Source of the DNA: Paludibacteraceae bacterium
GTDB taxonomy: Bacteria; Bacteroidota; Bacteroidia; Bacteroidales; Paludibacteraceae
Direction of reading: 5' to 3'
NCBI GenBank assembly: GCA_045578255.1
Contig: JAZNJW010000003.1
Span: 8,282-72,281, forward strand
DNA length: 64,000 nucleotides
Shown: positions 15,679 to 58,735 of the stretch, piece after piece
Numbering within the stretch: the stretch's first letter is position 1
Layout: every line of letters begins with the position of its first letter
The notes under the pieces: generated by a model
Database searches by the model: none
What the model saw: only the letters and a program-made list of their open reading frames with translations
Told to the model about the DNA's origin: nothing
Position numbers and translations under genes: made by a program

Positions 15679-16230
15679 ATGGCTGAGAACAATTGCAAGT
15701 GGTATGTGCTGAAAGCAATCAGTGGTAAGGAGAACAAAGTGAAAGAGTATATCGAAGGCGCTTTGGTTACCTCCACATTGTTTAAGGAATATGTATCACA
15801 AGTCTTGATTCCGACTGAGAAGGTGGTTAGTGTTCGCAATGGCAAGCGTGTAATCAAAGAGCGCAATAAGCTTCCAGGTTATGTGCTCGTTGAGTGCAAT
15901 TTGACTGATGAATGCTATCCACTGTTGCGTAACATTCCTAATGTGTTGGGTTTCTTGAGTGATAGTAAGTCCTCTACGAAGCCAGCTCCAGTATCTCAAG
16001 CTGAAATTAACAAAATTGTCGGCACTATTGATGAGGCATCTATTGAGTCAATAGCTGACGAGGTATTCTTGGTGGGCGAGCGCGTTAAGGTGATTAATGG
16101 CGCATTTAATGGATTCGAGGGCGTTATCGATGAGGTGGCGCAAGACAAGCGTAAGTTGAAGGTGGTAGTTACGATTTTTGATCGTCAAACACCTCTTGAA
16201 TTGAGCTTCGATCAAGTAGAAAAGGAGTAG
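15679..16230 (+). CDS. nusG: Transcription termination/antitermination factor NusG
   Basis: KWYVLKAISGKENKV (NGN domain) and C-terminal KOW (GERVKVINGAFNGFEGVI). The ATG at 15679 is preferred over the TTG at 15661. Confidence 0.95.
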   Translation: MAENNCKWYVLKAISGKENKVKEYIEGALVTSTLFKEYVSQVLIPTEKVVSVRNGKRVIKERNKLPGYVLVECNLTDECYPLLRNIPNVLGFLSDSKSSTKPAPVSQAEINKIVGTIDEASIESIADEVFLVGERVKVINGAFNGFEGVIDEVAQDKRKLKVVVTIFDRQTPLELSFDQVEKE

Positions 16231-27826: not shown

Positions 27827-30286
27827 CTACATTCCTAAATGCAAACGAAAACGAAGACCCCACCATGGTGCATGAGCATCATGCCAGTGCGTCAAACGGA
27901 ATACTCCGTACACTTCACCAATACGCAAGATATTACCCAACCCCACACCTACTTCTACGTAGGGAACGGTGGGAGCCGATAAGAGGGAGTAGGCTGATGC
28001 CTGCTCCGCTTTGTAATCACTTAGATGAGGAAAAGCTAATACCTGTGCATGTTTTTCGTGCAAAGAACCATACGCTACTTTTACCTCTACCAACTCACGC
28101 AACCGCAAATAACGGATACCTGGCACACGATTCAATAGCAATCCATTTCCATCCCATTGCGCATGTACCGATACATAACGGTCAGCTGCATACTGATAGG
28201 TATTCATCAACGTGAAACGCTGCGCATCCAATGTATATGAGGGGTTACCAGCAAAAATATGCAACAACGGATACGGCACATTACCAAAAATCATACCCGC
28301 TTCCAGCAGATAATTCAAATTACCAGCTATACCTAAATTTACTTTTTGACGTACTATCAAACGCAAATTACCATACATGCGATAACGAGGCATGTCTGCT
28401 AACTGATAACTACCTAATTCTGCACCTAAATACACCACAGGCAAATGATTGTAGATATGACGCCGATGAAAATAACTATCTATTTTGCGTTCATGAAAGC
28501 TAATGCGCGCAGATGCACCCAATGTGGAATAGAAAAATGATTTTTGCCCCATATAATCACGCGAAGCAGTTCCATAACCCATACGACCAATCTTCAGGTA
28601 TGCTTGTGTTTCTAAAAACGAATTCCATTCATCCTCAAAATGCATCCTCGCTTCACGACGACGCACCATTGTATTGTAGTAGAACGGCTTGTTGAAAGGT
28701 GCACCTCGCAGCAACTCCGTGATGAGGTTGATCTGTGGGTTGAAGACTTGATTCTCGCGTATATACTCCTGAAAATCATTCACATCCGAATAGACGTAGT
28801 GGTCTCCATACCGCACCTGAATAGTATGTCTCTTTTGGGTAGGCAAAGCGATATTCATTTCGCCCATACCTTTGCACGCTCTGTCACCCGTTGCGAACGA
28901 TATATATCCACCCAATGATACACGCTGCCACAACATCTCCGTCGTACGCAAAGGTAAGGCCATACGCCATCCTTCAACTTGATTGTACTTTAGCAACTCA
29001 TTCACCTTGCCGATTTCGATATACTTACCCGTCGGTATATAACCCGTTTGCAGTACATACGCCACGAATTTAGCCGTTCTAAATAATGGCGTGTTACTCA
29101 GGCTATCCATTGCACTGACTATAGGGCTATTGTGCGATGAGGCGATGAGGCGATGAGGCGATGGAGATATAGAGTGATGAGGAAAGGAAGTGTTACGGGT
29201 GATGAGAAGGGTAGGAAAGATATGTGAAGTGTCGGTCTTAATAGCAAAATCCAATAACAACGATAGGCGTTCATTTACGAGGTGATTACACTGTGTAAAA
29301 TTTTGATGGATAGTTAGTTGTCGCAAGAAATTGATATTGGTCTGGGATGGTACAGTGGCTTTTATGCTACGCAACGCATAGGTGGCAGAATCGATAGCCA
29401 TCTCGCCATTGAAAGTGGCATAAAAAGCATTCTTCGTGCGGAAATGTACCAGATAATGTTTCTCATTGCCCACCTGCATGCTGTCCGCTAGATAATAGTT
29501 GTAATACGAATTGCCCGCAGCGGCCAATGGACTAAGTAAGGAAGTTGATAAGATTTGGATATGGTTGTTGTAGAAATCACAAGTCGATTGCAAATCGTTG
29601 AGCAGGATATTGTAGTCGGTAGTGGTGAGCAAGGTGGCTTGTTCTTCGACTTGTTGCTCTTTTTTTCTTCGCCAGTACAACGGGATAAGATATGTGGAGT
29701 CTTCTGCTTGCAGCATACCTGTTTGCAGACTTTTCCATAGAGTTTTTCGCAGGTGTTTAGGCTGGATATCCGACACGTAGCAAGACAAATTTTGATGTGC
29801 CTGATCCAACATAGTAGTTTGTTGGTTGGCTTGTCGATGTTTGCGCACCTCATCCATAAGCGGTAGAGCAGGATTAACCCCAGGATAGACAAACACATCT
29901 GCTAGACTACTCACTTTCTCGCGCAAAGCAATATCTATACCAACTTGCTGTCCCACTTCGATACGAAAACGTTCGGTGTGATACCCCACAGCGGACACTA
30001 TCAAAGTATGTGCCCGGTCCACTTGTCCGCGCAAAAGAAACATGCCTTCGGCATTGCTTATTGTGCCGATGTCTGTGCCCTGCAAATAGACATTCACATT
30101 GGGTAGTGGCCGACCATTGGCTGCATCATATATATCGCCTATGATGATAGTTTCTCGCTGTTCACCTTTCATCTCATGCTGTTTACCCAAAGGATTTGCT
30201 GGTTGTTGGGGTGCTCTCACGTTCGTGCTCCATGCATTACTTGTTGTACAGCAAAGAGCAAACAATATGTATATCAGCCGTTTCAT
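27827..30286 (-). CDS. Outer-membrane protein with N-terminal carboxypeptidase-regulatory-like domain (DUF5686-like)
   Basis: Signal peptide. GDIYDAANGRPLPNVNVYLQGTDIGTISNAEGMFLL is a CarboxypepD_reg-like module. Long Tyr/Gly/aromatic-rich C-terminal barrel-like region. Confidence 0.7.
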   Translation of the reverse strand: MKRLIYILFALCCTTSNAWSTNVRAPQQPANPLGKQHEMKGEQRETIIIGDIYDAANGRPLPNVNVYLQGTDIGTISNAEGMFLLRGQVDRAHTLIVSAVGYHTERFRIEVGQQVGIDIALREKVSSLADVFVYPGVNPALPLMDEVRKHRQANQQTTMLDQAHQNLSCYVSDIQPKHLRKTLWKSLQTGMLQAEDSTYLIPLYWRRKKEQQVEEQATLLTTTDYNILLNDLQSTCDFYNNHIQILSTSLLSPLAAAGNSYYNYYLADSMQVGNEKHYLVHFRTKNAFYATFNGEMAIDSATYALRSIKATVPSQTNINFLRQLTIHQNFTQCNHLVNERLSLLLDFAIKTDTSHIFPTLLITRNTSFPHHSISPSPHRLIASSHNSPIVSAMDSLSNTPLFRTAKFVAYVLQTGYIPTGKYIEIGKVNELLKYNQVEGWRMALPLRTTEMLWQRVSLGGYISFATGDRACKGMGEMNIALPTQKRHTIQVRYGDHYVYSDVNDFQEYIRENQVFNPQINLITELLRGAPFNKPFYYNTMVRRREARMHFEDEWNSFLETQAYLKIGRMGYGTASRDYMGQKSFFYSTLGASARISFHERKIDSYFHRRHIYNHLPVVYLGAELGSYQLADMPRYRMYGNLRLIVRQKVNLGIAGNLNYLLEAGMIFGNVPYPLLHIFAGNPSYTLDAQRFTLMNTYQYAADRYVSVHAQWDGNGLLLNRVPGIRYLRLRELVEVKVAYGSLHEKHAQVLAFPHLSDYKAEQASAYSLLSAPTVPYVEVGVGLGNILRIGEVYGVFRLTHWHDAHAPWWGLRFRLHLGM
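29134..29165. repeat. 8-bp tandem repeat GCGATGAG x4 (last copy GCGATGGA) inside the outer-membrane protein CDS
   Basis: Read directly: gcgatgag gcgatgag gcgatgag gcgatgga. Encodes part of ..SPSPHRLIASSH.. on the minus strand. Confidence 0.9.
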
Positions 30287-37446: not shown

Positions 37447-38277
37447 TTACCAACGGCGACGAAATAATCCGCCAATCAAACAGATTAATATATAGAATGG
37501 ATATACTACCTCCAACAGCAACGCTGTACCGAAGCCAACCGACTTATCGCGTTTCTTAATCAAGTGATATTCAATCGGAAACTTCACAATCAAAGCCACA
37601 GGACATAACACCTGTATCACATTGGCTATCAATACGATTGCTCCGCAGCAGAGAATATCTTTGTCGGTGTATTTGGGTGCTTTACCAGCCCAACGCATGC
37701 GTTGATGGAAGAACGCAAGCCAAGTGGTTTGAGGGCGAACGAGGGCGGTCAATTCCTCGCTCTCACTCACCGCAATCTTCAGTCCCCGACGCTTGAAGGA
37801 CTCTAAGAGAAACATATCATCGCCACTCGGTATTTCGGGATGCAAGTCGGGATAGGACTCCAACCATCTATCGCGTTTGGCAATGAGGTTCGCCCCACTA
37901 CACAGCACAGCATGCCCACGTTTGGCTGTTTCTATGGTCAGTTGCTGAATGGCAGCATACTCTGCCATCTGCAACCGCTCCAGTAGCGACGGTTTCTCTC
38001 TCTCCGACTCCATCCGCAGTGGAAGGATGAGGAGATCGCTTTGCTGTAGATCGCTCGCGATGCTCACTGTAGATCGCTTTGCTGTAGATCGTTCGTGATG
38101 CTCACTGAAGACACTATTGCTGATGGGAGATGGGAGAATATCATCGTCCATCATCCAAATATACTCTGTTTGGGATTCAGAGATAAGGCGATAAAGGGCA
38201 TGTTTCTTGCCCTTCCCTTCGTCGTTGATTCCCCGTCGCGGGATGATGATTGATATGTTATTGCTATTAATATCCAA
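37447..38277 (-). CDS. Family-2 glycosyltransferase carrying an in-frame repeat insertion
   Basis: ISIIIP..., an acidic DDD motif, QRMRWAGK, and C-terminal TM helices. Confidence 0.7.
   Translation of the reverse strand: MDINSNNISIIIPRRGINDEGKGKKHALYRLISESQTEYIWMMDDDILPSPISNSVFSEHHERSTAKRSTVSIASDLQQSDLLILPLRMESEREKPSLLERLQMAEYAAIQQLTIETAKRGHAVLCSGANLIAKRDRWLESYPDLHPEIPSGDDMFLLESFKRRGLKIAVSESEELTALVRPQTTWLAFFHQRMRWAGKAPKYTDKDILCCGAIVLIANVIQVLCPVALIVKFPIEYHLIKKRDKSVGFGTALLLEVVYPFYILICLIGGLFRRRW
38034..38109. repeat. 38-bp unit x2 tandem repeat inside the GT2 CDS, followed by GATGGGA x2 at 38122-38135
   Basis: gatcgctttgctgtagatcgctcgcgatgctcactgta / gatcgctttgctgtagatcgttcgtgatgctcactgaa, with 3 mismatches. 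Encodes ..HHERSTAKRSTVSIASDLQQSD.. Confidence 0.9.
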
Positions 38278-38459: not shown

Positions 38460-39485
38460 ATGAAAAAGTTATCTTCTCTTTTCATGGCAATCCTCGCTGC
38501 TACATACCTTTGGGCGTATGATTTCGAAGCTGGTGGTTTGTTTTACAATGTTATTAGTGACACCATACCTTACACTGCTGAAGTGACCAATCATCCTGGT
38601 TTCCCTTACGAGATTGCATCGGCTACAATTCCAGAGAAGGTTAATTATTGTGACATTACCTATGTTATTAAAAGAATTGGAGCGGGAGCTTTTGAAGATT
38701 GTTACGCACTCACCTCTGTCACCATCCCCAATTCAATAACTAGCATAGAATCATTCGCTTTCAAGAATTGCCAATCGCTCAACTCTATCAATATCCCAAA
38801 GAGCGTGGTGTTTATTAAACCCACTGCATTTTCTAATTCTGGTATTTACAACGATGAGTCTAATTGGGAAGATAGTGTGCTTTACATTAGCGATTGTTTG
38901 ATTCAAGCGAAACGAGGGCTTACAGGTTCGTATATAGTTAAGGAAGGAACTCGATTGATCATTAATGAAGCATTTGCAGGATCTAATCTTACTGACATTA
39001 CGATTCCTAATACAGTAACTGATATTGGTGTAGGTGCTTTTCAATATTCAGCTCTTACTTCCATCATTATTCCTAATGGTGTAACGAAAATATGGGCAGG
39101 TGCTTTCCACCATTGTACTTCCCTCAAGTCAGTTACGCTTCCCAACAGCATTACGCAAATCCAGCGCGATGCTTTTAGGGATTGCACTGCTCTTACGACA
39201 GTCGTTTGCGAGGCGGTTCAAGTACCAGATTGTCAGCATAATATATTTGCCAACATACCATTTCTGGAGGCTACGTTATATGTACCTAAAGAATCTTTAG
39301 AGGAATATAAATCAGCCATTTATTGGAAAGACTTTGGCACTATCTTGCCAATAGCCCCAACAGGTACAGAAAACACACATTCTAAGAATAACAATAGTTC
39401 TTCATTTACCAAAGTAATCCTCAATGGTCAACTTCTCATCCTCCGTGATGGCAAGACATACACCGTGATGGGTGTGGAATGGTAG
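38460..39485 (+). CDS. BspA-type leucine-rich-repeat surface protein with probable T9SS C-terminal domain
   Basis: Signal peptide. Repeats IPNSITSIESFAFKNCQSL, IPNTVTDIGVGAF and LPNSITQIQRDAFRDCTAL. Tail KVILNGQLLILRDGKTYTVMG. Confidence 0.8.
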   Translation: MKKLSSLFMAILAATYLWAYDFEAGGLFYNVISDTIPYTAEVTNHPGFPYEIASATIPEKVNYCDITYVIKRIGAGAFEDCYALTSVTIPNSITSIESFAFKNCQSLNSINIPKSVVFIKPTAFSNSGIYNDESNWEDSVLYISDCLIQAKRGLTGSYIVKEGTRLIINEAFAGSNLTDITIPNTVTDIGVGAFQYSALTSIIIPNGVTKIWAGAFHHCTSLKSVTLPNSITQIQRDAFRDCTALTTVVCEAVQVPDCQHNIFANIPFLEATLYVPKESLEEYKSAIYWKDFGTILPIAPTGTENTHSKNNNSSSFTKVILNGQLLILRDGKTYTVMGVEW

Positions 39486-39520: not shown

Positions 39521-39564
39521 GCGGTTATTGTCCGGTTATTGTCCGGTTATTGTGCGGTTATTGT
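39521..39564. repeat. 11-bp tandem repeat (G/C)CGGTTATTGT x4 at the convergent LRR/aroA junction
   Basis: gcggttattgt ccggttattgt ccggttattgt gcggttattgt. The aroA stop and its last codons (..SHRTITAQ*) lie inside it. Confidence 0.9.
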
Positions 39565-40791
39565 GCGGTGCGAGCAGGGAGTTTGTGGAAATAGTTTATA
39601 GTATTCTTCCATAAATTGAGGATAGGATTTGCTGATGCAGGCGATGTCGTCCACTTCGTAGCCAGCAATCAACAATGCCATTGCCATGCGGTGGTCGTGG
39701 TCGGTGCGGTGTTCGCGTACAGCACGCAGGCGGTCGGATTCCTTCAGAGGCAAAGATTCTACGCCTGTGGCATGTAACTCTATGCCCAAACATTCACAGG
39801 TCAGAGCGACAGCAGGGTACAGGTCGGGGCAAGTTCCGAAATCCTGAATGAGGATTTTGGAACGGGACGCCGCTTGTGCGGCTATTGGACGCCCACCATG
39901 TGGGCTATTGGACGCTTCGCTATAGGCGATAGGCGAAAGGATGATGCCTTCGGCGGTGTAGGTAGTATGGACGCCGAGGTGGGCGAAGATGTCGGCAATG
40001 ATTTTGTCGCCTTGCAGCGAGTCGCGGAATAAGCCAGGGAGCGTAATCTCACCACCGTAAAGAGCCACATACTCGTACCAGAAGGCGGCAGAGGACCAGT
40101 CCTTTTCTAGTTCGTTCGCTATCCTCACTGTAGATCGCTGCGCTGTAGTTCGCTCGTTTTGCTCGCTGTAGTTCGCTCGTTTTACTCGCTGTAGATAGCT
40201 TTCTATTATCTCGCGGGTAAGAGTAATGTAAGGAGAAGTGCTATTGGTTTGGACGTTCGCGCCGATGAGGAGCAGGGCCGAAACGAACTGCGTAGATTGG
40301 GGATTGTTGAGAGTAACTATCCTATGCTTATCTAATATACATCCCTTAATGCGCAAAGGCGGGAAGCCCTCTTCGCCTAGATATTCTATATCAGCCCCTA
40401 TCTCATGCAAAGCATCTACTAACTGACCTATAGGACGGTGACGCATGCGTTCCACACCATTAAGAATAACTGTTTGTCCCTCTAGTTGAGCACAGTAGGC
40501 CGTGAGGAAGCGCATGGCGGTGCCACAATTGCCGAGTTCGATACTCGAACAGGACGCCGCTTGCGCGGCTATAGGACGCCCTGACGGGCTATAGGACGGC
40601 GTTTCGCCTATAGGACGCTCGCTCTGCGAGCTATTGGATGCATTGTTTAGTGTGGTTAAAGCGCGATGGAGAATCTGCACATCTTCGGGCAAAGTAGCGG
40701 AGACGGGCATAAGCTCGTCTCCGTGTATGGATTGCAAAATCAATAGGCGATTTGCAATGGATTTCGATATTGGCAGTTCAATCTGCATCAA
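39547..40791 (-). CDS. aroA: 3-phosphoshikimate 1-carboxyvinyltransferase (EPSP synthase) with three in-frame low-complexity insertions
   Basis: LPISKSIANRLLIL, GNCGTAMRFLTAYCA and DHRMAMALLIAG motifs. Confidence 0.9.
   Translation of the reverse strand: MMQIELPISKSIANRLLILQSIHGDELMPVSATLPEDVQILHRALTTLNNASNSSQSERPIGETPSYSPSGRPIAAQAASCSSIELGNCGTAMRFLTAYCAQLEGQTVILNGVERMRHRPIGQLVDALHEIGADIEYLGEEGFPPLRIKGCILDKHRIVTLNNPQSTQFVSALLLIGANVQTNSTSPYITLTREIIESYLQRVKRANYSEQNERTTAQRSTVRIANELEKDWSSAAFWYEYVALYGGEITLPGLFRDSLQGDKIIADIFAHLGVHTTYTAEGIILSPIAYSEASNSPHGGRPIAAQAASRSKILIQDFGTCPDLYPAVALTCECLGIELHATGVESLPLKESDRLRAVREHRTDHDHRMAMALLIAGYEVDDIACISKSYPQFMEEYYKLFPQTPCSHRTITAQ
39865..39940. repeat. In-frame repeat block in aroA (encodes ..SNSPHGGRPIAAQAASRS..)
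   Basis: ggacgccgcttgtgcggctattggacgcc, then gctattggacgc again, then ataggcg x2. Confidence 0.85.
40124..40199. repeat. In-frame repeat block in aroA (encodes ..NERTTAQRSTVRIANE..)
   Basis: The 16-nt core ctcactgtagatcgct is identical to the GT2 repeat. It is followed by the 23-bp unit gctgtagttcgctcgtttt(g/a)ctc x2. Confidence 0.85.
40552..40640. repeat. In-frame repeat block in aroA (encodes ..SERPIGETPSYSPSGRPIAAQAASCS..)
   Basis: ggacgccgcttgcgcggctataggacgcc has 27 of 29 nt identical to 39865-39893. It is followed by ctataggacg words x3. Confidence 0.85.
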
Positions 40792-43206: not shown

Positions 43207-43851
43207 CTACACAAATCGATTAGAATTATGCAAACTTAATAATTGATATTCTTCAAGCATCTCCCATTTGGGCATATACCCTAAACAAGAAGACTCCCAA
43301 TCCTTTATTTTTTGCAAAAAAATATCCTTAATTGCTACGATATATTCATATTCCCAACCATTTGAATATTCAACTGATGTTCTAAATATTGCTATCTCAT
43401 CATTATGTCTATAAGCAGCTTCTAACCATAAAAAGATAGTTTGTTTTGGCAGTAATGTATATGTATCATCATCTATGTTATTCAAATCTAGAGCGAAAAG
43501 GTATTGTAAATATTTCTTTTCATCAATCGTATAGTTTTTTCGCTCTAATTTGTTTAATAATTTATTATAAATTCTCTTTCCTTCGTTTCGTTTTGACCGC
43601 TTTACCTTATGTAATATCGACTGTTCGTATTCACCTGAGCAAAAAGATACACTAATTTCTTGCGTATTTCCCTCCACATCTATCAATAAATAGTAAGCAT
43701 GACACCCCGTATACCTTATGGCACTATCTCCATATATAAATCCAAAAACACCTTGTTCTTCATATTTACCAATATAGTATGCCGCATAATGATGCGATTC
43801 TTTTGCAACTGCATCTGCTATTTTCTGATATCTTTTACAATATTTCCACAT
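43207..43851 (-). CDS. Hypothetical 214-aa protein, translationally coupled to the GmrSD-like gene
   Basis: The ATG at 43849-43851 lies 2 nt after the upstream TAA (43854-43856). No signal peptide, TM helix or motif that I recognise. Confidence 0.65.
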   Translation of the reverse strand: MWKYCKRYQKIADAVAKESHHYAAYYIGKYEEQGVFGFIYGDSAIRYTGCHAYYLLIDVEGNTQEISVSFCSGEYEQSILHKVKRSKRNEGKRIYNKLLNKLERKNYTIDEKKYLQYLFALDLNNIDDDTYTLLPKQTIFLWLEAAYRHNDEIAIFRTSVEYSNGWEYEYIVAIKDIFLQKIKDWESSCLGYMPKWEMLEEYQLLSLHNSNRFV

Positions 43852-43853
43852 AA

Positions 43854-45932
43854 TTATTCTGTTTTTCTTTGCGGATGAAGTACAATAGATATAGCATCTG
43901 TTTCGTATTCATACATGGTAAGTAGCCTATATAATTGGCGAAGCTTGTTGTGTGTGTTACATGCAACCTTAAGATATAGATTTTCGGAGATTTGGTTAAA
44001 TCCTTCTTCTGGATGTGTTTCATAGAATCCTTCTTGAGGATTTTGTGCCAAATAATTTAATTTTGAGTTGTCTTTTTCATACAATGTTTTTACGATACGA
44101 GTAAAAGCATCTGCCCAACTGTCCACATTAACAACTAAGCCTTCAAAACGGTAACATTTGATATATCGACCTTTAAATTCAAATTCGGCATCAATAGGAA
44201 TAAATTCCTCTTCTGACACGATTGGTTTATAGTGAGTTGTTGGATATGGCCATATTTTGCAAGCTTGTTCTGCAAACCAATTGCACCGCGTTTTTATGTT
44301 TTGTAGAGTCCAATGTTCTTGTTCACTCACATACTTATTCATTGCCACACAACTATCTTTAAACCCTTTCATATCTTGCAAGGTAGGTATGCCGTCACGC
44401 TTCTCAGAGAATTTGCGGTTACTATACTCTGAGTTATATGCTGTCAATGTTAAGTTTCCTATATTATGTAACCATTTATCATATTCTTCTTCAGTAATAT
44501 CTCCCAACTCTATTTTCCAATCGTCTGATAGAGTTTGTGGCATAATATGTTCAATACTTAATACACCATCCTCAATTTTCATTTTCGTACCAACCGCCTC
44601 TTTATTCATTGCTTCTTCAAATTTATAGAACAAATACAAGCGATAGTTACTTCTCATCTTATATACTTCTCTTTCTTCAAAACTCAGTTTAAACTTTTCA
44701 TCATTTGGAAACTCCCAATAGGTAATACCATGTTGAAGTAAGTAGATGAAAACATCAAGATATGTGAAATTATCATACATCATTTTGATAATTCGATTAT
44801 GAAGATTTACAAAAATCTTGTTTAGTCCAGTATTGTAAAATCCACTCATAATACGGCGGAAGAGAAATACTTCAAGCACTCCCAAAACTTTTTCTGCTTC
44901 ATTATCGGAAATACCTCCTTGTCTGTGGTAAGCCAATAATGCTAGTAAAAATGGATATGTCGTAGTTAATTCTAACTGCTCCAAATCCGTCATTATGGCG
45001 TTCGCTTTATTTGTGCCTATTTTGGACTCCTTAATGGATTTGAAAATAGTTGCATAATATTTTAGATCTGTTAACAAGGGTTCTACATCACTGGCATAAT
45101 TCTCTAATACGAAATCCTTAAACACTTTGTAAACATCATTTCTATTAGGAATATAATTCAATCTCATGGTAAGGTAATCTCGCATGAAGTCTTCCATATA
45201 GATATTGGTGCTAATTTCTATAGGCAACCAATAATTATTGTAAATGTGTTCTTGTCGTTTTGCATCAAGATTCATCAATACAAAATTGCGTATTTTATCT
45301 GTTTCATTGAGACTGACACCAGTAGAATTGATAGTTTCAAATACAAGTTGAGCATTATCTCCATATTGTGGTTCTAATGAAATCTGTACAAATTCTAGCC
45401 TGTTTTTTATTGCTTCGTAAAACTTTGTTGCATCTACATTTTGGGATATTAGTTCGTTGTAAAAGAATTTGTAGTTGATAGTTATTTGTGATGTCTCAAT
45501 ATAATTTTGCGCATCACCAAATAATGCGTCATAAGCTTTGCAATCATCACGAAATGGTTTTAATTTCATGCGATGTTCTTCTGTACTACTGAATTGATTA
45601 ACAAGAAACTCGTATTCAATTTGATTAGCAAGAGATGGATTTGTGACCTCTATTTCGCCATTTTTGATGGCATTTCGCAAAGCAAGTAAAAGAATAGATA
45701 TCGTTGTTATACGCTGTTGCCCATCTATCACAATAAAAGAATCCGCATGGTCTACAAAGACAACACTTCCGATAAAATGTTTTTTGCGTTCATCATTACA
45801 GATATTTAGTATATCATCAAATAATAGCTTGCAATTTTCTTTTCTCCATGTATAATTGCGTTGATATACTGGCACTACCAAAGGTTTGGTACTATGAAAG
45901 AATTTCGCTAAAAAAGTTTCTTGACCTCTCAT
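43854..45932 (-). CDS. GmrSD-family type IV restriction-like nuclease (N-terminal DUF262 + C-terminal DUF1524) with an extra C-terminal extension
   Basis: DUF262 motifs PVYQRNYTW and VIDGQQRITT. DUF1524 His-Me-type motifs SIEHIMPQ and WLHNIGNLTLTAYNSEYSN. More than 100 residues follow the last motif. Confidence 0.85.
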   Translation of the reverse strand: MRGQETFLAKFFHSTKPLVVPVYQRNYTWRKENCKLLFDDILNICNDERKKHFIGSVVFVDHADSFIVIDGQQRITTISILLLALRNAIKNGEIEVTNPSLANQIEYEFLVNQFSSTEEHRMKLKPFRDDCKAYDALFGDAQNYIETSQITINYKFFYNELISQNVDATKFYEAIKNRLEFVQISLEPQYGDNAQLVFETINSTGVSLNETDKIRNFVLMNLDAKRQEHIYNNYWLPIEISTNIYMEDFMRDYLTMRLNYIPNRNDVYKVFKDFVLENYASDVEPLLTDLKYYATIFKSIKESKIGTNKANAIMTDLEQLELTTTYPFLLALLAYHRQGGISDNEAEKVLGVLEVFLFRRIMSGFYNTGLNKIFVNLHNRIIKMMYDNFTYLDVFIYLLQHGITYWEFPNDEKFKLSFEEREVYKMRSNYRLYLFYKFEEAMNKEAVGTKMKIEDGVLSIEHIMPQTLSDDWKIELGDITEEEYDKWLHNIGNLTLTAYNSEYSNRKFSEKRDGIPTLQDMKGFKDSCVAMNKYVSEQEHWTLQNIKTRCNWFAEQACKIWPYPTTHYKPIVSEEEFIPIDAEFEFKGRYIKCYRFEGLVVNVDSWADAFTRIVKTLYEKDNSKLNYLAQNPQEGFYETHPEEGFNQISENLYLKVACNTHNKLRQLYRLLTMYEYETDAISIVLHPQRKTE

Positions 45933-45981
45933 GATATTGGAATTTTACTTATTGTTTACTTAGGTTTTGTTTTTTACTCGG

Positions 45982-45989
45982 CAAAGATA
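45982..45989 (-). promoter_or_regulatory. -7 box (TATCTTTG on minus strand) for the GmrSD-like operon
   Basis: CAAAGATA lies about 50 nt upstream of the start at 45932. Confidence 0.5.
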
Positions 45990-46015
45990 GTGAATTATAT
46001 TGAATTGAGCAAGAG

Positions 46016-47020
46016 TTATTTCTCCGTCAGTTTTTTTATTTCGCGGTCGAAGTCGGAAATGATTTTCTGAGTTTTATTAAATTCCATGTACTCATCTTCT
46101 GCTTTTTTATCCGCTTGTGAACGAGAAACGCGCCCTTTATCCGTCAGTATTTGGTATTTGCGAAACTCTAAAAACTCATTTACACTATTTGCAAACTCCG
46201 CCATTGTAAAAGTATTCTCTTGCTCGATAAGGTCTTCGATATAATCAAAATATCCCGTTACTGCACGCTCTAATCGGCGTATTTGTTTTTCATCTAAATA
46301 ATTTTTAGCAATGGTTACATCCGATTTTAAGATTCTACCATCTGGCGCATACTTCCATGTTGTCAATCCCATGTGCTCCTTTGTATGATCTGCTTTGGAG
46401 TGAACAATCTCTGCTGCTGTTTGCCCTGTAATAGCATAGTGAAATTTATTTTGCACCATGGCATAGAACTCTTGCGTAATAGGAGAAGTACGGTCATAGT
46501 CCAAACTGCATTCTGCAAAGATGTCCGTTATCTGTTGCCATATACGACGCTCGCTGGCACGAATAGAACGAACGCGCTCTAGCAATTCACGGAAATAATC
46601 TTTGCCAAAAGCAGTGGTTCCTTGTTTCAATCGTTCATCATCCAACACAAAGCCCTTTTGGATAAACTCTTTGAGAATCTTAGTCGCCCAAATACGGAAA
46701 TGAGTAGCTTTAGCTGAATTAACTCTATAACCAACAGAAATAATTGCATCAAGGTTGTAGAAGTTCGTTTCCTTTTGTTGCGTTTTGCCTTCTATCGCAC
46801 CATGTTGAGTGGTTATTTCCATTTTGGAAACAACCATATTTTCTGCCAGTTCTCCCTCTTCAAAAATATTCTTTAGATGCTTACTAATAGCAGGAACTTG
46901 TACACCAAACAATTCAGCCATTGCTTTTTGTGTCAGCCAAAGTGTTTCATCCTTTACCACCGCTTCAATGTTGACATTTCCCTGTGGGGTCTGGTAGATT
47001 ATAAAATTTATCTCATTCAT
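46016..47020 (-). CDS. RhuM-family protein
   Basis: N-terminus IIYQTPQGNVNIEAVVKDETLWLTQKAMAELFGVQVPAISKHLKNIFEEGEL and YNLDAIISVGYRVNS are characteristic of the RhuM family. Confidence 0.8.
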   Translation of the reverse strand: MNEINFIIYQTPQGNVNIEAVVKDETLWLTQKAMAELFGVQVPAISKHLKNIFEEGELAENMVVSKMEITTQHGAIEGKTQQKETNFYNLDAIISVGYRVNSAKATHFRIWATKILKEFIQKGFVLDDERLKQGTTAFGKDYFRELLERVRSIRASERRIWQQITDIFAECSLDYDRTSPITQEFYAMVQNKFHYAITGQTAAEIVHSKADHTKEHMGLTTWKYAPDGRILKSDVTIAKNYLDEKQIRRLERAVTGYFDYIEDLIEQENTFTMAEFANSVNEFLEFRKYQILTDKGRVSRSQADKKAEDEYMEFNKTQKIISDFDREIKKLTEK

Positions 47021-48885: not shown

Positions 48886-49021
48886 TTAGACCGCTCGCGT
48901 TGCTCGCTGTTAGAAGTTAGACCACTGCGTTGTTAGAAGTTAGACTATGAAAATCTCTCAGCGCGAAGCGCGATCTAACAGCCGAAGGAGGTCTCTCTTC
49001 TCTCAGCCCGCAGGGCGGTCG
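48886..49021. repeat. Intergenic word-repeat block
   Basis: GTTAGAAGTTAGAC x2 (48909, 48932), CTCGCGTTGCTCGCTG, and TCTCAGCGCGAAGCGCGATC / TCTCAGCCCGCAGGGCGGTC. Confidence 0.8.
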
Positions 49022-49030
49022 GGTTAATGG

Positions 49031-57805: not shown

Positions 57806-57914
57806 GTGAAAAATTGTGAGATGGCAAAATAATTTGAGGTATATTTTTGTTTTTTAGTAGAAATATCGTAATTATATGATATATACGATGTTCCTACAGT
57901 ATACATATACTAAT

Positions 57915-57967
57915 CTACCGTATATCTACCGTGTATGTACCGTATATCTACCGTATATCTACCGTAG
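57915..57967. repeat. 11-bp tandem repeat CTACCGTATAT x5 (degenerate) upstream of grpE
   Basis: ctaccgtatat ctaccgtgtat gtaccgtatat ctaccgtatat ctaccgtag. Confidence 0.9.
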
Positions 57968-58138: not shown

Positions 58139-58735
58139 ATGATGAAGAATAAAAATAAAAAGAATGTAGAGCAACCTGTTGAAAATCAACAGGAAAACTT
58201 AAATGTGCAAACTGAAAACGGAAAGGTGGAAGTAGAGAACACTGAGAGTGTACAAACTGAAGAAGTGTCAGAGACCGAAATGCTGCAAGCCAAAGTGGCA
58301 GAATTGGAAGCACGCGTGGCAGAGTTGGAAGACCTGAAACTGCGTCAAATGGCAGAGTTTGACAACTTCCGTCGTCGTACCAACAAAGAGAAACTGGAAT
58401 TGATGACCACCGCTGGTGAGCGTATCTTCAAAGATATGCTGCCCCTTGTTGATGACTTTGAACGCGCCAAAGATGCGATGGCAAAGACCGATGATATTGA
58501 GGCAGTTCGTCAAGGCATTGAATTGATTTACAATAAGTTTATCGGTTTCTTGGCGGCAAATGATGTGAAAGTAATTGATACAACCGATGCTGATTTTAAT
58601 ACCGATTTGCACGAGGCAATTACCACTTTTGCAGCAGGCGAAGACAAAAAAGGTAAAGTAATCGATTGTACACAAAAAGGATACACCTTGGGCGAAAAAG
58701 TGATTCGCTTTGCGAAAGTAGTCGTAGGAGAATAA
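58139..58735 (+). CDS. grpE: Nucleotide exchange factor GrpE
   Basis: Coiled-coil N-terminus, [23 protein letters not shown], and C-terminal VIRFAKVVV. Confidence 0.93.

Follow-up and report, generated by a model that had tools for sequence, protein, structure and literature searches.

The 64,000 nucleotides analysed here, referred to below as the window, come from a Paludibacteraceae bacterium (assembly GCA_045578255.1, contig JAZNJW010000003.1, positions 8,282 to 72,281 of the forward strand) and contain a gene of the AroA (5-enolpyruvylshikimate-3-phosphate (EPSP) synthase) family that is interrupted by short repeat DNA. The explanation that we favour, with moderate confidence, is that lineage-specific repeat cassettes, similar to minisatellites and repetitive extragenic palindromic (REP) elements, are tolerated in permissive loops and at the C-terminal end of an enolpyruvyl transferase of gut Paludibacteraceae that is AroA-like but truncated. 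The sites concerned are polymorphic among orthologues: each is filled by any of several mutually unrelated cassettes or has a short form, and strains show these alternatives in reassorted combinations. An earlier note on this DNA had described three repeat blocks in the gene and compared them to the palindromic elements of Rickettsia.

Repeat cassettes in an AroA-like gene

The pattern GGACGCCGCTTGYGCGGCTATWGGACGCC has two exact matches on the plus strand of the window, at 39865-39893 and 40552-40580, and no match in 100 shuffles even when three mismatches were tolerated. The two 29-nt copies differ at 2 of 29 positions, and their similarity reaches 42 nt at 86%. They lie in the AroA-like open reading frame (ORF), are read as ..SGRPIAAQAASCSS.. 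and ..GGRPIAAQAASRSK.., and both encode GRPIAAQAAS; their core pairs as a 5-bp stem (GCCGC / GCGGC) around a loop of 4 nt. This pair was found exactly as the earlier note had reported it, and so was its third block, for which TRF identified a 23-nt unit repeated 2.3 times (40141-40194, 96% matching). The 16-nt core of that block, CTCACTGTAGATCGCT, is exact at 40124 in aroA and at 38063 in the ORF of a glycosyltransferase family 2 (GT2) protein nearby, where TRF gives a 38-nt array of 2.1 copies (38033-38111); with up to 3 mismatches the core has five matches against 0.37 expected. Two features had been missed, namely an 11-nt array over the aroA stop codon and the 12-nt unit GCTATWGGACGC, which occurs six times against 0.36 expected and always within the two blocks of what is called module A here.

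Two modules build these cassettes. Module A, written on the coding strand, is a conserved unit GCGTCCWATAGC combined with short, perfect GC-rich hairpins of differing sequence (GCTCGC-AGA-GCGAGC, GCCC-GTCA-GGGC, GCCGC-RCAA-GCGGC, and GCCCAC-ATG-GTGGGC) at a period of about 19-23 nt. Four GCGTCCWATAGC-type units parted by such hairpins form the cassette at site 1 (hairpin cluster 40556-40631), and the hairpins at site 3 are TCGC-CTATA-GCGA, GCCCAC-ATG-GTGGGC, and GCCGC-ACAA-GCGGC. The sense RNA of module A folds better than shuffles (z = -3.0 for site 1 and z = -3.3 for site 3). In module B, spacers of 5 nt and 13 nt alternate between copies of the unit CGATCTACAG (or CGAACTACAG), which gives a 15/23-nt spacing and a 38-nt period, and the array at site 2 has no predicted RNA structure (z = +0.8). 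Units A and B are identical at 9 of 13 positions with a CTRYAG core in common. Periodic hairpin clusters numbered 25 in the loci examined as opposed to 0-3 in shuffled controls. No Rfam family matched the cassettes, and a promoter and terminator scan gave signals at chance level.

The units are not bound to one reading frame. The unit CGTCCTATAGC is read either as RPIA or as (A/P)SYS, and CGATCTACAG as RST or DLQ, both of the latter within one protein (the AroA-GT2 fusion L017); the third frame of each unit holds a stop. Thus, the conserved entity is the DNA and not the peptide.

For comparison, the 120 closest public proteins were taken as the orthologue set; they come from gut or rumen metagenome assemblies, two being sourced as a Paludibacteraceae metagenome-assembled genome (MAG). 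These proteins are 353-446 aa long, except two 633-aa AroA-GT2 fusions, and their alignment has a near-invariant core broken by hypervariable sites at which the sequence is wholly different or absent. In the window ORF and the 120 orthologues the cassettes are in frame and free of stops, and they are predicted to be read through as peptide. Sites 1 to 3 were placed in the fold by sequence alignment (Table 1), and an AlphaFold2 model (23-sequence alignment A1, mean predicted local distance difference test score 42) was left unused. Conserved AroA motifs flank the blocks, and close orthologues lack them or carry unrelated sequence in their place, which agrees with the earlier description as in-frame additions. 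As to the insertion points, this description holds for sites 1 and 3. The cassette at site 2 takes the place and the rough length of a hairpin native to canonical AroA and is therefore a replacement and not a simple insertion. In phmmer alignments to solved AroA structures, blocks 1 and 2 come to lie opposite native segments of similar length, which is misleading.

When the DNA was aligned with the loci L001 and L002, one cassette was seen to be cleanly swapped for another between identical flanks. Allelic DNA alignments of the coding cassettes revealed no filled/empty pairs, target-site duplications, terminal inverted repeats, or fixed termini. About 5 cassette types are found at site 1, about 11 at site 2, and about 7 at site 3, and among the 90 orthologues resolved at all three sites 34 combinations occur; for two site-1 and two site-2 alleles all four combinations were found. 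Of the proteins, 47 have module A at site 1, 23 at site 2, and 64 at site 3; module B was found at site 2 in 53 of them and at site 3 in 14. Other strains have 8-nt, 7-nt, or other alleles at site 1. A complex non-tandem cassette, CERSVVENNVVGVVDLDN, is common to sites 1 and 2, and the module A copies at sites 2 and 3 are identical over 51/51 nt within L001, L006, L007, and L014. In the shortened variants NNASNSSQSERPIAAQAASCSSIE and DQYPIAAQAASAL, the deletion runs between direct units. At the GT2 site A-like and B cassettes alternate, with other strains carrying a module-A-like cassette (ERPIGGTPSNS) or unrelated sequence, and module B is also found in the aroA leader of L001.

When cassettes of one type are compared between species, their identity is 0.946 overall and 0.919 at third positions, compared with 0.73 at third positions and 0.709 at 4-fold sites of the core; in the most distant pair the corresponding figures are 98% for the cassette and 57% for such core sites. 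At site 3 the between-species identity of the cassette is 88-100%, with 55-81% at 4-fold sites of the core. Within the cassettes, first and second positions are about as identical as third positions, so that there is no codon-position asymmetry. The cassettes are without peptide-type constraint, yet highly similar between species. The aroA-like gene itself is a mosaic, in which blocks of 100% identity stand beside blocks of 62-86%. Between the window and L001, identity is 96% across 6.9 kb of flanking DNA but 86% in aroA, and the cassette haplotypes (ATG-loop vs TGA-loop) do not track the core.

Table 1. Coordinates of the host gene, its GT2 neighbour, and the repeat cassettes in the window
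Feature	Window position	Strand	E. coli AroA position	Remarks
AroA-like (EPSP-synthase family) ORF, cassette host	39547..40791	minus		414 aa; PF00275, E = 1.7e-48
Site 1 cassette, module A long form	40540..40657 (array proper 40552-40641)	minus	~61-89	encodes NNASNSSQSERPIGETPSYSPSGRPIAAQAASCSS; relatives of 400-420 aa naturally short here; true insertion of ~28 aa in the window
Site 2 cassette, module B	40108..40205	minus	~209-238	units CGATCTACAG / CGAACTACAG, 15/23-nt spacing; encodes SYLQRVKRANYSEQNERTTAQRSTVRIANEL; relatives have a native hairpin, lost in the short clade, whose place the cassette fills
Site 3 cassette, module A short form	39865..39937	minus	~296-304	encodes SPIAYSEASNSPHGGRPIAAQAAS; insertion of ~17-20 aa
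Fourth array, 11-nt unit CGGTTATTGTC x4.4	39522-39569	minus		overlaps the aroA stop codon; C-terminal tail CSHRTITAQ
GT2 glycosyltransferase ORF	37447..38277	minus		276 aa; PF13641; next to the aroA-like gene, fused to it in other strains
Module B cassette in GT2	38033..38122	minus		38-nt unit x2.1-2.4, just past the WMMDDD motif; encodes SEHHERSTAKRSTVSIASDLQQSDL

Proposed origin and spread of the cassettes

The favoured explanation has four steps, of which the first is the polymorphism and reassortment described above. In the second, the length of arrays changes in both directions, as the deletion variants show, and slippage or unequal exchange between units is the putative mechanism. In the third, a cassette would be copied within about 2.5 kb (aroA sites 1-3, GT2, and the aroA leader), most likely through ectopic gene conversion or template switching; short-range copying is proposed because the sharing is concentrated within this distance. 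In the fourth, strains and species would exchange cassettes by homologous recombination with the conserved core as homology arms, as suggested by the mosaic structure and by the cassette haplotypes that do not track the core. Recombination of this kind would explain both the reassortment and the young look of the cassettes. Selection would retain only in-frame, stop-free versions, and each DNA unit would hence be read in whichever open frame fits. The cassette peptides are probably tolerated loop filler and not functional motifs. The earlier note had considered a repeat family that was either mobile or generated by slippage, and traces of both slippage and copying are indeed present.

The distribution beyond the gene differs between the modules. 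A scan of one genome per species (185,579 species) with the 24-nt core of module A gave 14 stretches in 13 Paludibacteraceae MAGs. According to tblastn, every copy in these 13 genomes lies inside the aroA-like orthologue, with 1-3 copies per gene, and module A is thus not a dispersed family. The only related piece elsewhere is ERPIGGTPS in the neighbouring or fused GT2, and from these matches module A appears private to the aroA-GT2 locus. A dispersed family had been postulated before, with the proviso that cores occurring nowhere else in the genome would refute it, and for the 29-nt module the postulate has to be given up. It stands for the family of the 16-nt core, which was found in GT2, in pdxA, and in leaders on other contigs.

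A scan of metagenome contigs with a 24-mer of module B matched 6 contigs. One match lies in the GT2 part of L017, a syntenic relative; the other five comprise copies in the 5' leaders of pdxA, mntP-like, and rluD-like genes and two further copies in unassigned intergenic DNA. The pdxA gene with the leader copy also holds 2-3 B units in frame (ADLQRSDL). Judged by these matches, module B is part of a wider dispersed family (intergenic leaders, pdxA). The intergenic composites consist of forward CTGWAGATCG plus mini-hairpin arrays followed by reverse B units (z = -3.0 and -2.0); in them (C)TGWAGATCG is joined to 3-5-bp GC hairpins with TTCG, TAGC, or AGA loops, and reverse CGATCTACAG arrays follow. 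Such composites were located at L022:12515-12705, L021:140-215 and 622-685, L001:9843-10000, and L019:560-790, and those in leaders stop 3-25 nt before the start codons of pdxA, the mntP-like gene, the rluD-like gene, and aroA. The intergenic DNA of L021, L022, and L001 holds arrays in which CTGTAGATCG is combined with a GC hairpin of 3-5 bp, and the stems differ between copies.

In the window outside aroA-GT2 no unit is over-represented, and octamer enrichment there gave only the Bacteroidota promoter motif TACCTTTG and no word of the HIP1 or uptake-sequence kind; in the window as a whole KWAGATCG was found 6 times against 7 expected. When viral contigs were scanned with two patterns, this yielded four unrelated module-B-type matches (e.g. 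pentapeptide repeats) and none for module A. A protein search with a 44-aa composite cassette peptide gave no candidates.

Several points weigh against the favoured explanation. In the 12 cassettes compared at site 3, variable columns amount to 1 of 22 in the stems and 3 of 7 in the loop, which hints at structural constraint. The conservation peak at site 3 goes along with only weakly raised synonymous identity in the flanks, a pattern that nucleic-acid selection explains equally well. Chimeras among the metagenome assemblies could make the gene look more mosaic than it is. The dispersed copies of module B lie on other metagenome contigs (L018-L022), and in about 215 kb of verified relatives module B is found only at the aroA-GT2 locus and its leader. 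Translation of the cassettes and function of the enzyme are predictions from sequence, and the first entry of a cassette into a site without prior homology is not covered by the four steps.

A bolder interpretation is put forward tentatively, namely that the cassettes belong to an undescribed Bacteroidota superfamily of 'unit plus mini-hairpin' arrays, which nucleic-acid selection or drive would maintain and spread. It would be a counterpart of the Rickettsia palindromic elements (RPEs) with a new structure and possibly with a dedicated protein. The consensus unit of this candidate superfamily is GCG-WY-CTAYAG-C with the CTRYAG core; two of its three frames are open, and such elements could therefore live inside ORFs.

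It is unlikely that the aroA cassettes are in-frame insertions of a non-autonomous mobile element, be it a MITE (miniature inverted-repeat transposable element), an RPE, or a REP-like element, with a dedicated transposase of the Y1/RAYT (REP-associated tyrosine transposase) type. Module B 24-mers at unlinked loci (GT2, leader or intergenic DNA near pdxA and the rluD-like and mntP-like genes, and one unassigned intergenic site) and module B units in frame in pdxA are consistent with such an element, as are the composite inverted structures of the intergenic copies and their folding scores, the order of GTAG and then a palindrome that resembles REP and SMAG elements, the orientation of module B, which is co-directional with the gene in 8 of 8 assignable cases, and the likeness of units A and B. 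However, neither fixed ends nor terminal inverted repeats nor target-site duplications are seen in the coding cassettes, their fragment length and register vary, and their allelic forms are replacements and not filled versus empty sites. Moreover, in the 13 genomes the module A core lies in one gene and nowhere else, no unit is over-represented elsewhere in the window, and the matches in viral contigs were unrelated. No transposase turned up, the clade genomes not having been searched for RAYT (Y1 transposase).

Quite unlikely in our assessment is a role of the cassettes as functional nucleic-acid elements within the ORF, that is, RNA hairpins or protein-binding DNA that act on mRNA stability, translation pace, or regulation and are kept by nucleotide selection. 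The cassette DNA does exceed the flanking synonymous sites in conservation with all codon positions alike, and it joins a conserved single-stranded unit to perfect hairpins whose stems differ (GCUCGC/GCGAGC, GCCC/GGGC, GCCGC/GCGGC, and GCCCAC/GUGGGC). Among orthologues the loop is ATG, TGA, ATT, or ATA on fixed stems, and the excess of periodic hairpin clusters over shuffles and the leader copies of module B that end close to start codons fit the same idea. On the other hand, many strains have no cassettes or unrelated ones at the same site, and no element is therefore required. Module B is unstructured, no Rfam family is matched, and promoter and terminator signals are at chance. The evident recombination between lineages can yield the same conservation, and the contrast between stems and loop is based on 12 sequences.

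If the cassettes had arisen purely by replication slippage, locally and de novo in unconstrained loops and without any copying from one site or locus to another, this would account for short-unit arrays of differing copy number and for deletion variants. Such an origin would also suit the in-frame arrays of different units that RsgA, an Omp85-family protein, and an 819-aa CarboxypepD_reg protein hold, and another lineage with its own QVSGFKF unit. Independent slippage cannot give identities of 24-51 nt across aroA sites, GT2, and unlinked loci, nor complex non-tandem cassettes common to several sites, such as CERSVVENNVVGVVDLDN at sites 1 and 2. By these shared identities pure slippage is largely refuted and survives only as a mechanism for array length; as the whole explanation it is very improbable. 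Native divergent AroA segments or assembly artefacts can practically be dismissed, since the phmmer alignment, which sets blocks 1 and 2 against E. coli-type AroA segments about as long as they are, is countered by close orthologues (core 81-95% identical) without the blocks or with unrelated sequence there, by AroA relatives of ~400-410 aa that are short at site 1, by the construction of the blocks from tandem DNA units, and by the same cassettes in independent ENA, NCBI, JGI, and Logan assemblies and in 13 species genomes.

Two further candidates were rejected. For a mechanism of the diversity-generating retroelement type or one with silent donor cassettes, no module A donor is present outside the gene in the 13 genomes, nor is the variation specific to adenine. 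The segments are short and stop-free and keep the frame in every case, which does not fit inteins, introns, or translational bypass elements.

The host gene, its surroundings, and further arrays

The window protein matches AroA structures in PDB with a best E of 1.9e-35. The catalytic residues (E. coli K22, R27, N94, R124, Q171, D313, K340, E341, R344, H385, R386, and K411) align, and in alignments A1 and A3 they are invariant or near-invariant, in line with the PF00275 fold. With TIGR01356 (NCBIfam aroA) the protein scores 197.7 bits, under the cut-off of 287.25, and its core of about 350 aa is without the E. coli 347-380 segment of full-length AroA. Because of the score below this cut-off the label 'essential AroA' is not warranted; the earlier note had counted the host among essential enzymes, which is unproven for a member of a truncated and often GT2-fused clade. 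In the aroA core, codon positions 1 and 2 are ~0.95 identical and third positions ~0.6, and the gene is hence under purifying selection.

In a search of 50%-identity representatives the window protein groups with a clade of short AroA-like proteins (core 320-370 aa), many of which carry a C-terminal GT2 fusion and reach 590-675 aa in total; P0069, P0074, P0121, and L017 (L017:6263-8287) are such fusions. The frequent fusion suggests that the function is tied to GT2, instead of or besides classical EPSP synthesis. The next relatives of the clade have ~40% identity and 400-420 aa, and one cluster of them is named 3-phosphoshikimate 1-carboxyvinyltransferase (Bacteroidales).

Between GT2 and aroA the window has a BspA-type leucine-rich-repeat gene on the opposite strand (38460-39485, plus). 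In L001 a beta-lactamase-family gene takes its place, and in L016 and L017 aroA and GT2 are adjacent or fused. The aroA-GT2 locus is a hotspot of gene-content change, with 86% and 80% identity as opposed to 96% in the flanks. Further on, at 43207-47020, there is a probable defence island made up of genes for GmrSD (DUF262/DUF1524) and a RhuM-like protein and of a small ORF, which sits between the M49 peptidase and PNP_UDP_1 genes and is common to the window and L001.

Other repeat arrays were observed in the lineage. The 11-nt C-terminal array of aroA recurs in near-identical form in intergenic DNA (L001:13856-13898 and L015:3660-3707), where a copy of the CGGTTATTGTC array lies, for example, in the leader of a nitroreductase gene. 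An 8-nt array, GCGATGAG x3.8, is found at 29134-29163 of the window in frame in the ORF 27827..30286 (minus), which encodes the 819-aa CarboxypepD_reg/DUF-type outer-membrane protein. It lies in a hypervariable loop in which orthologues have other repeats of 8-aa period (PISNTQY.. and SLITSSPH..), and in other strains the LIASSPH cassette of aroA site 1 is built from the same octamer array. RsgA and the Omp85-family protein contain, in variable loops, in-frame arrays of the 10-nt units HNPTPSYTTLDNPTPHS and NHTTQPYTTLHHTTPHS (L001:14158-14206 and 15764-15811, L002:1500-1545); in-frame short-unit arrays are thus not limited to aroA in this lineage.

Intergenic repeats of the window include a 30-nt x1.9 array at 48886-49030, followed by small GC hairpins and a GCGATCTAACAG unit, and an 11-nt x4.9 array, ATCTACCGTAT, at 57913-57966 upstream of the ORF at 58139; in the other loci examined both have orthologous matches only. 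In a different AroA-GT2 lineage, the P0124 cluster (alignment A6), the 7-aa repeat QVSGFKF occurs at two sites of the AroA domain, and one member has one additional copy; here, too, a single repeat is found in several places of the gene, but its unit is unrelated. The peptide deformylase encoded at L022:11969-12514 has 182 aa, and members of its 90%-identity cluster have 207 and 224 aa; by their length these may read through into the hairpin array past the stop codon.

Comparison with known repeat systems

Extragenic palindromes of the REP, bacterial interspersed mosaic element (BIME), and SMAG types have GTAG or a similar tetranucleotide 5' of an imperfect palindrome, and their stems are conserved. 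The intergenic relatives found here resemble them in that (C)TGTAGATCG stands before a short palindrome rich in GC, the whole being arranged as arrays and as inverted composites. In contrast, the units are much shorter (~20 nt), the stems vary from copy to copy, and copies also lie inside coding sequence. Coding minisatellites and cryptically simple sequence are low-complexity stretches made by slippage in protein loops. With these the cassettes share short-unit tandems, length polymorphism, deletions between units, the location in loops, and a weak or absent peptide constraint. They differ by identical stretches of 24-51 nt across sites, genes, and loci and by a conservation between species that exceeds that of synonymous sites. 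As for MITEs, terminal inverted repeats, target-site duplications, and defined ends are lacking in the coding cassettes, and the intergenic composites are inverted-repeat-like.

No literature on such repeats in Paludibacteraceae was found. The closest repeat in Bacteroidales is the BrickBuilt element of Porphyromonas gingivalis, a dispersed 23-nt minisatellite/MITE, which has 19 copies that are always intergenic, a leader and a tail with inverted-repeat ends, and no spacers between the repeats (PMC4596501). The cassettes resemble BrickBuilt as dispersed, imperfect tandem arrays in Bacteroidales with a 23-nt period, a copy number that differs by locus and strain, and a position near gene starts. 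They are not of the BrickBuilt type, as the unit alternates with a spacer or hairpin, no leader or tail was found, and copies are intragenic and in frame.

RPEs are ~150 bp long, form families each with a conserved peptide, and occur in ~44 copies in unrelated genes of one genome (Ogata et al. 2000, as summarised in PMC10969869). The likeness consists in palindromic repeat DNA that lies in frame in enzyme genes at apparently fold-compatible positions, with module B being intergenic as well. The differences from the RPEs described there are that the cassettes are 50-110-nt arrays of 10-13-nt units with one unit read in two frames, so that neither size nor peptide agrees; that in the 13 genomes module A is confined to one gene and has no dozens of dispersed copies, module B being dispersed on other contigs; and that the cassettes are allelic and reassorted between strains of a Bacteroidota host and not of Rickettsia. 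The analogy drawn in the earlier note applies to the in-frame location and the palindromic content but not to the length of ~150 bp and the dozens of copies in unrelated genes. The cassettes resemble RPEs in effect and are not members of the RPE family.

If confirmed, the cassettes would provide a natural map of the loops of the EPSP fold that tolerate 15-40 extra residues, a tractable case of repeat DNA making new peptide segments, and strain-level markers for Paludibacteraceae. A separate point is the truncated, often GT2-fused AroA-like clade, the function of which may differ from classical EPSP synthesis. In-frame repeat DNA in bacterial enzyme genes is documented mainly for RPEs, and a comparable outcome is seen here in a free-living gut Bacteroidota. 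Features not described for RPEs are the 10-13-nt units with mini-hairpins, the interchangeable, reassorted alleles at each loop, and a conservation above that of neighbouring synonymous sites.

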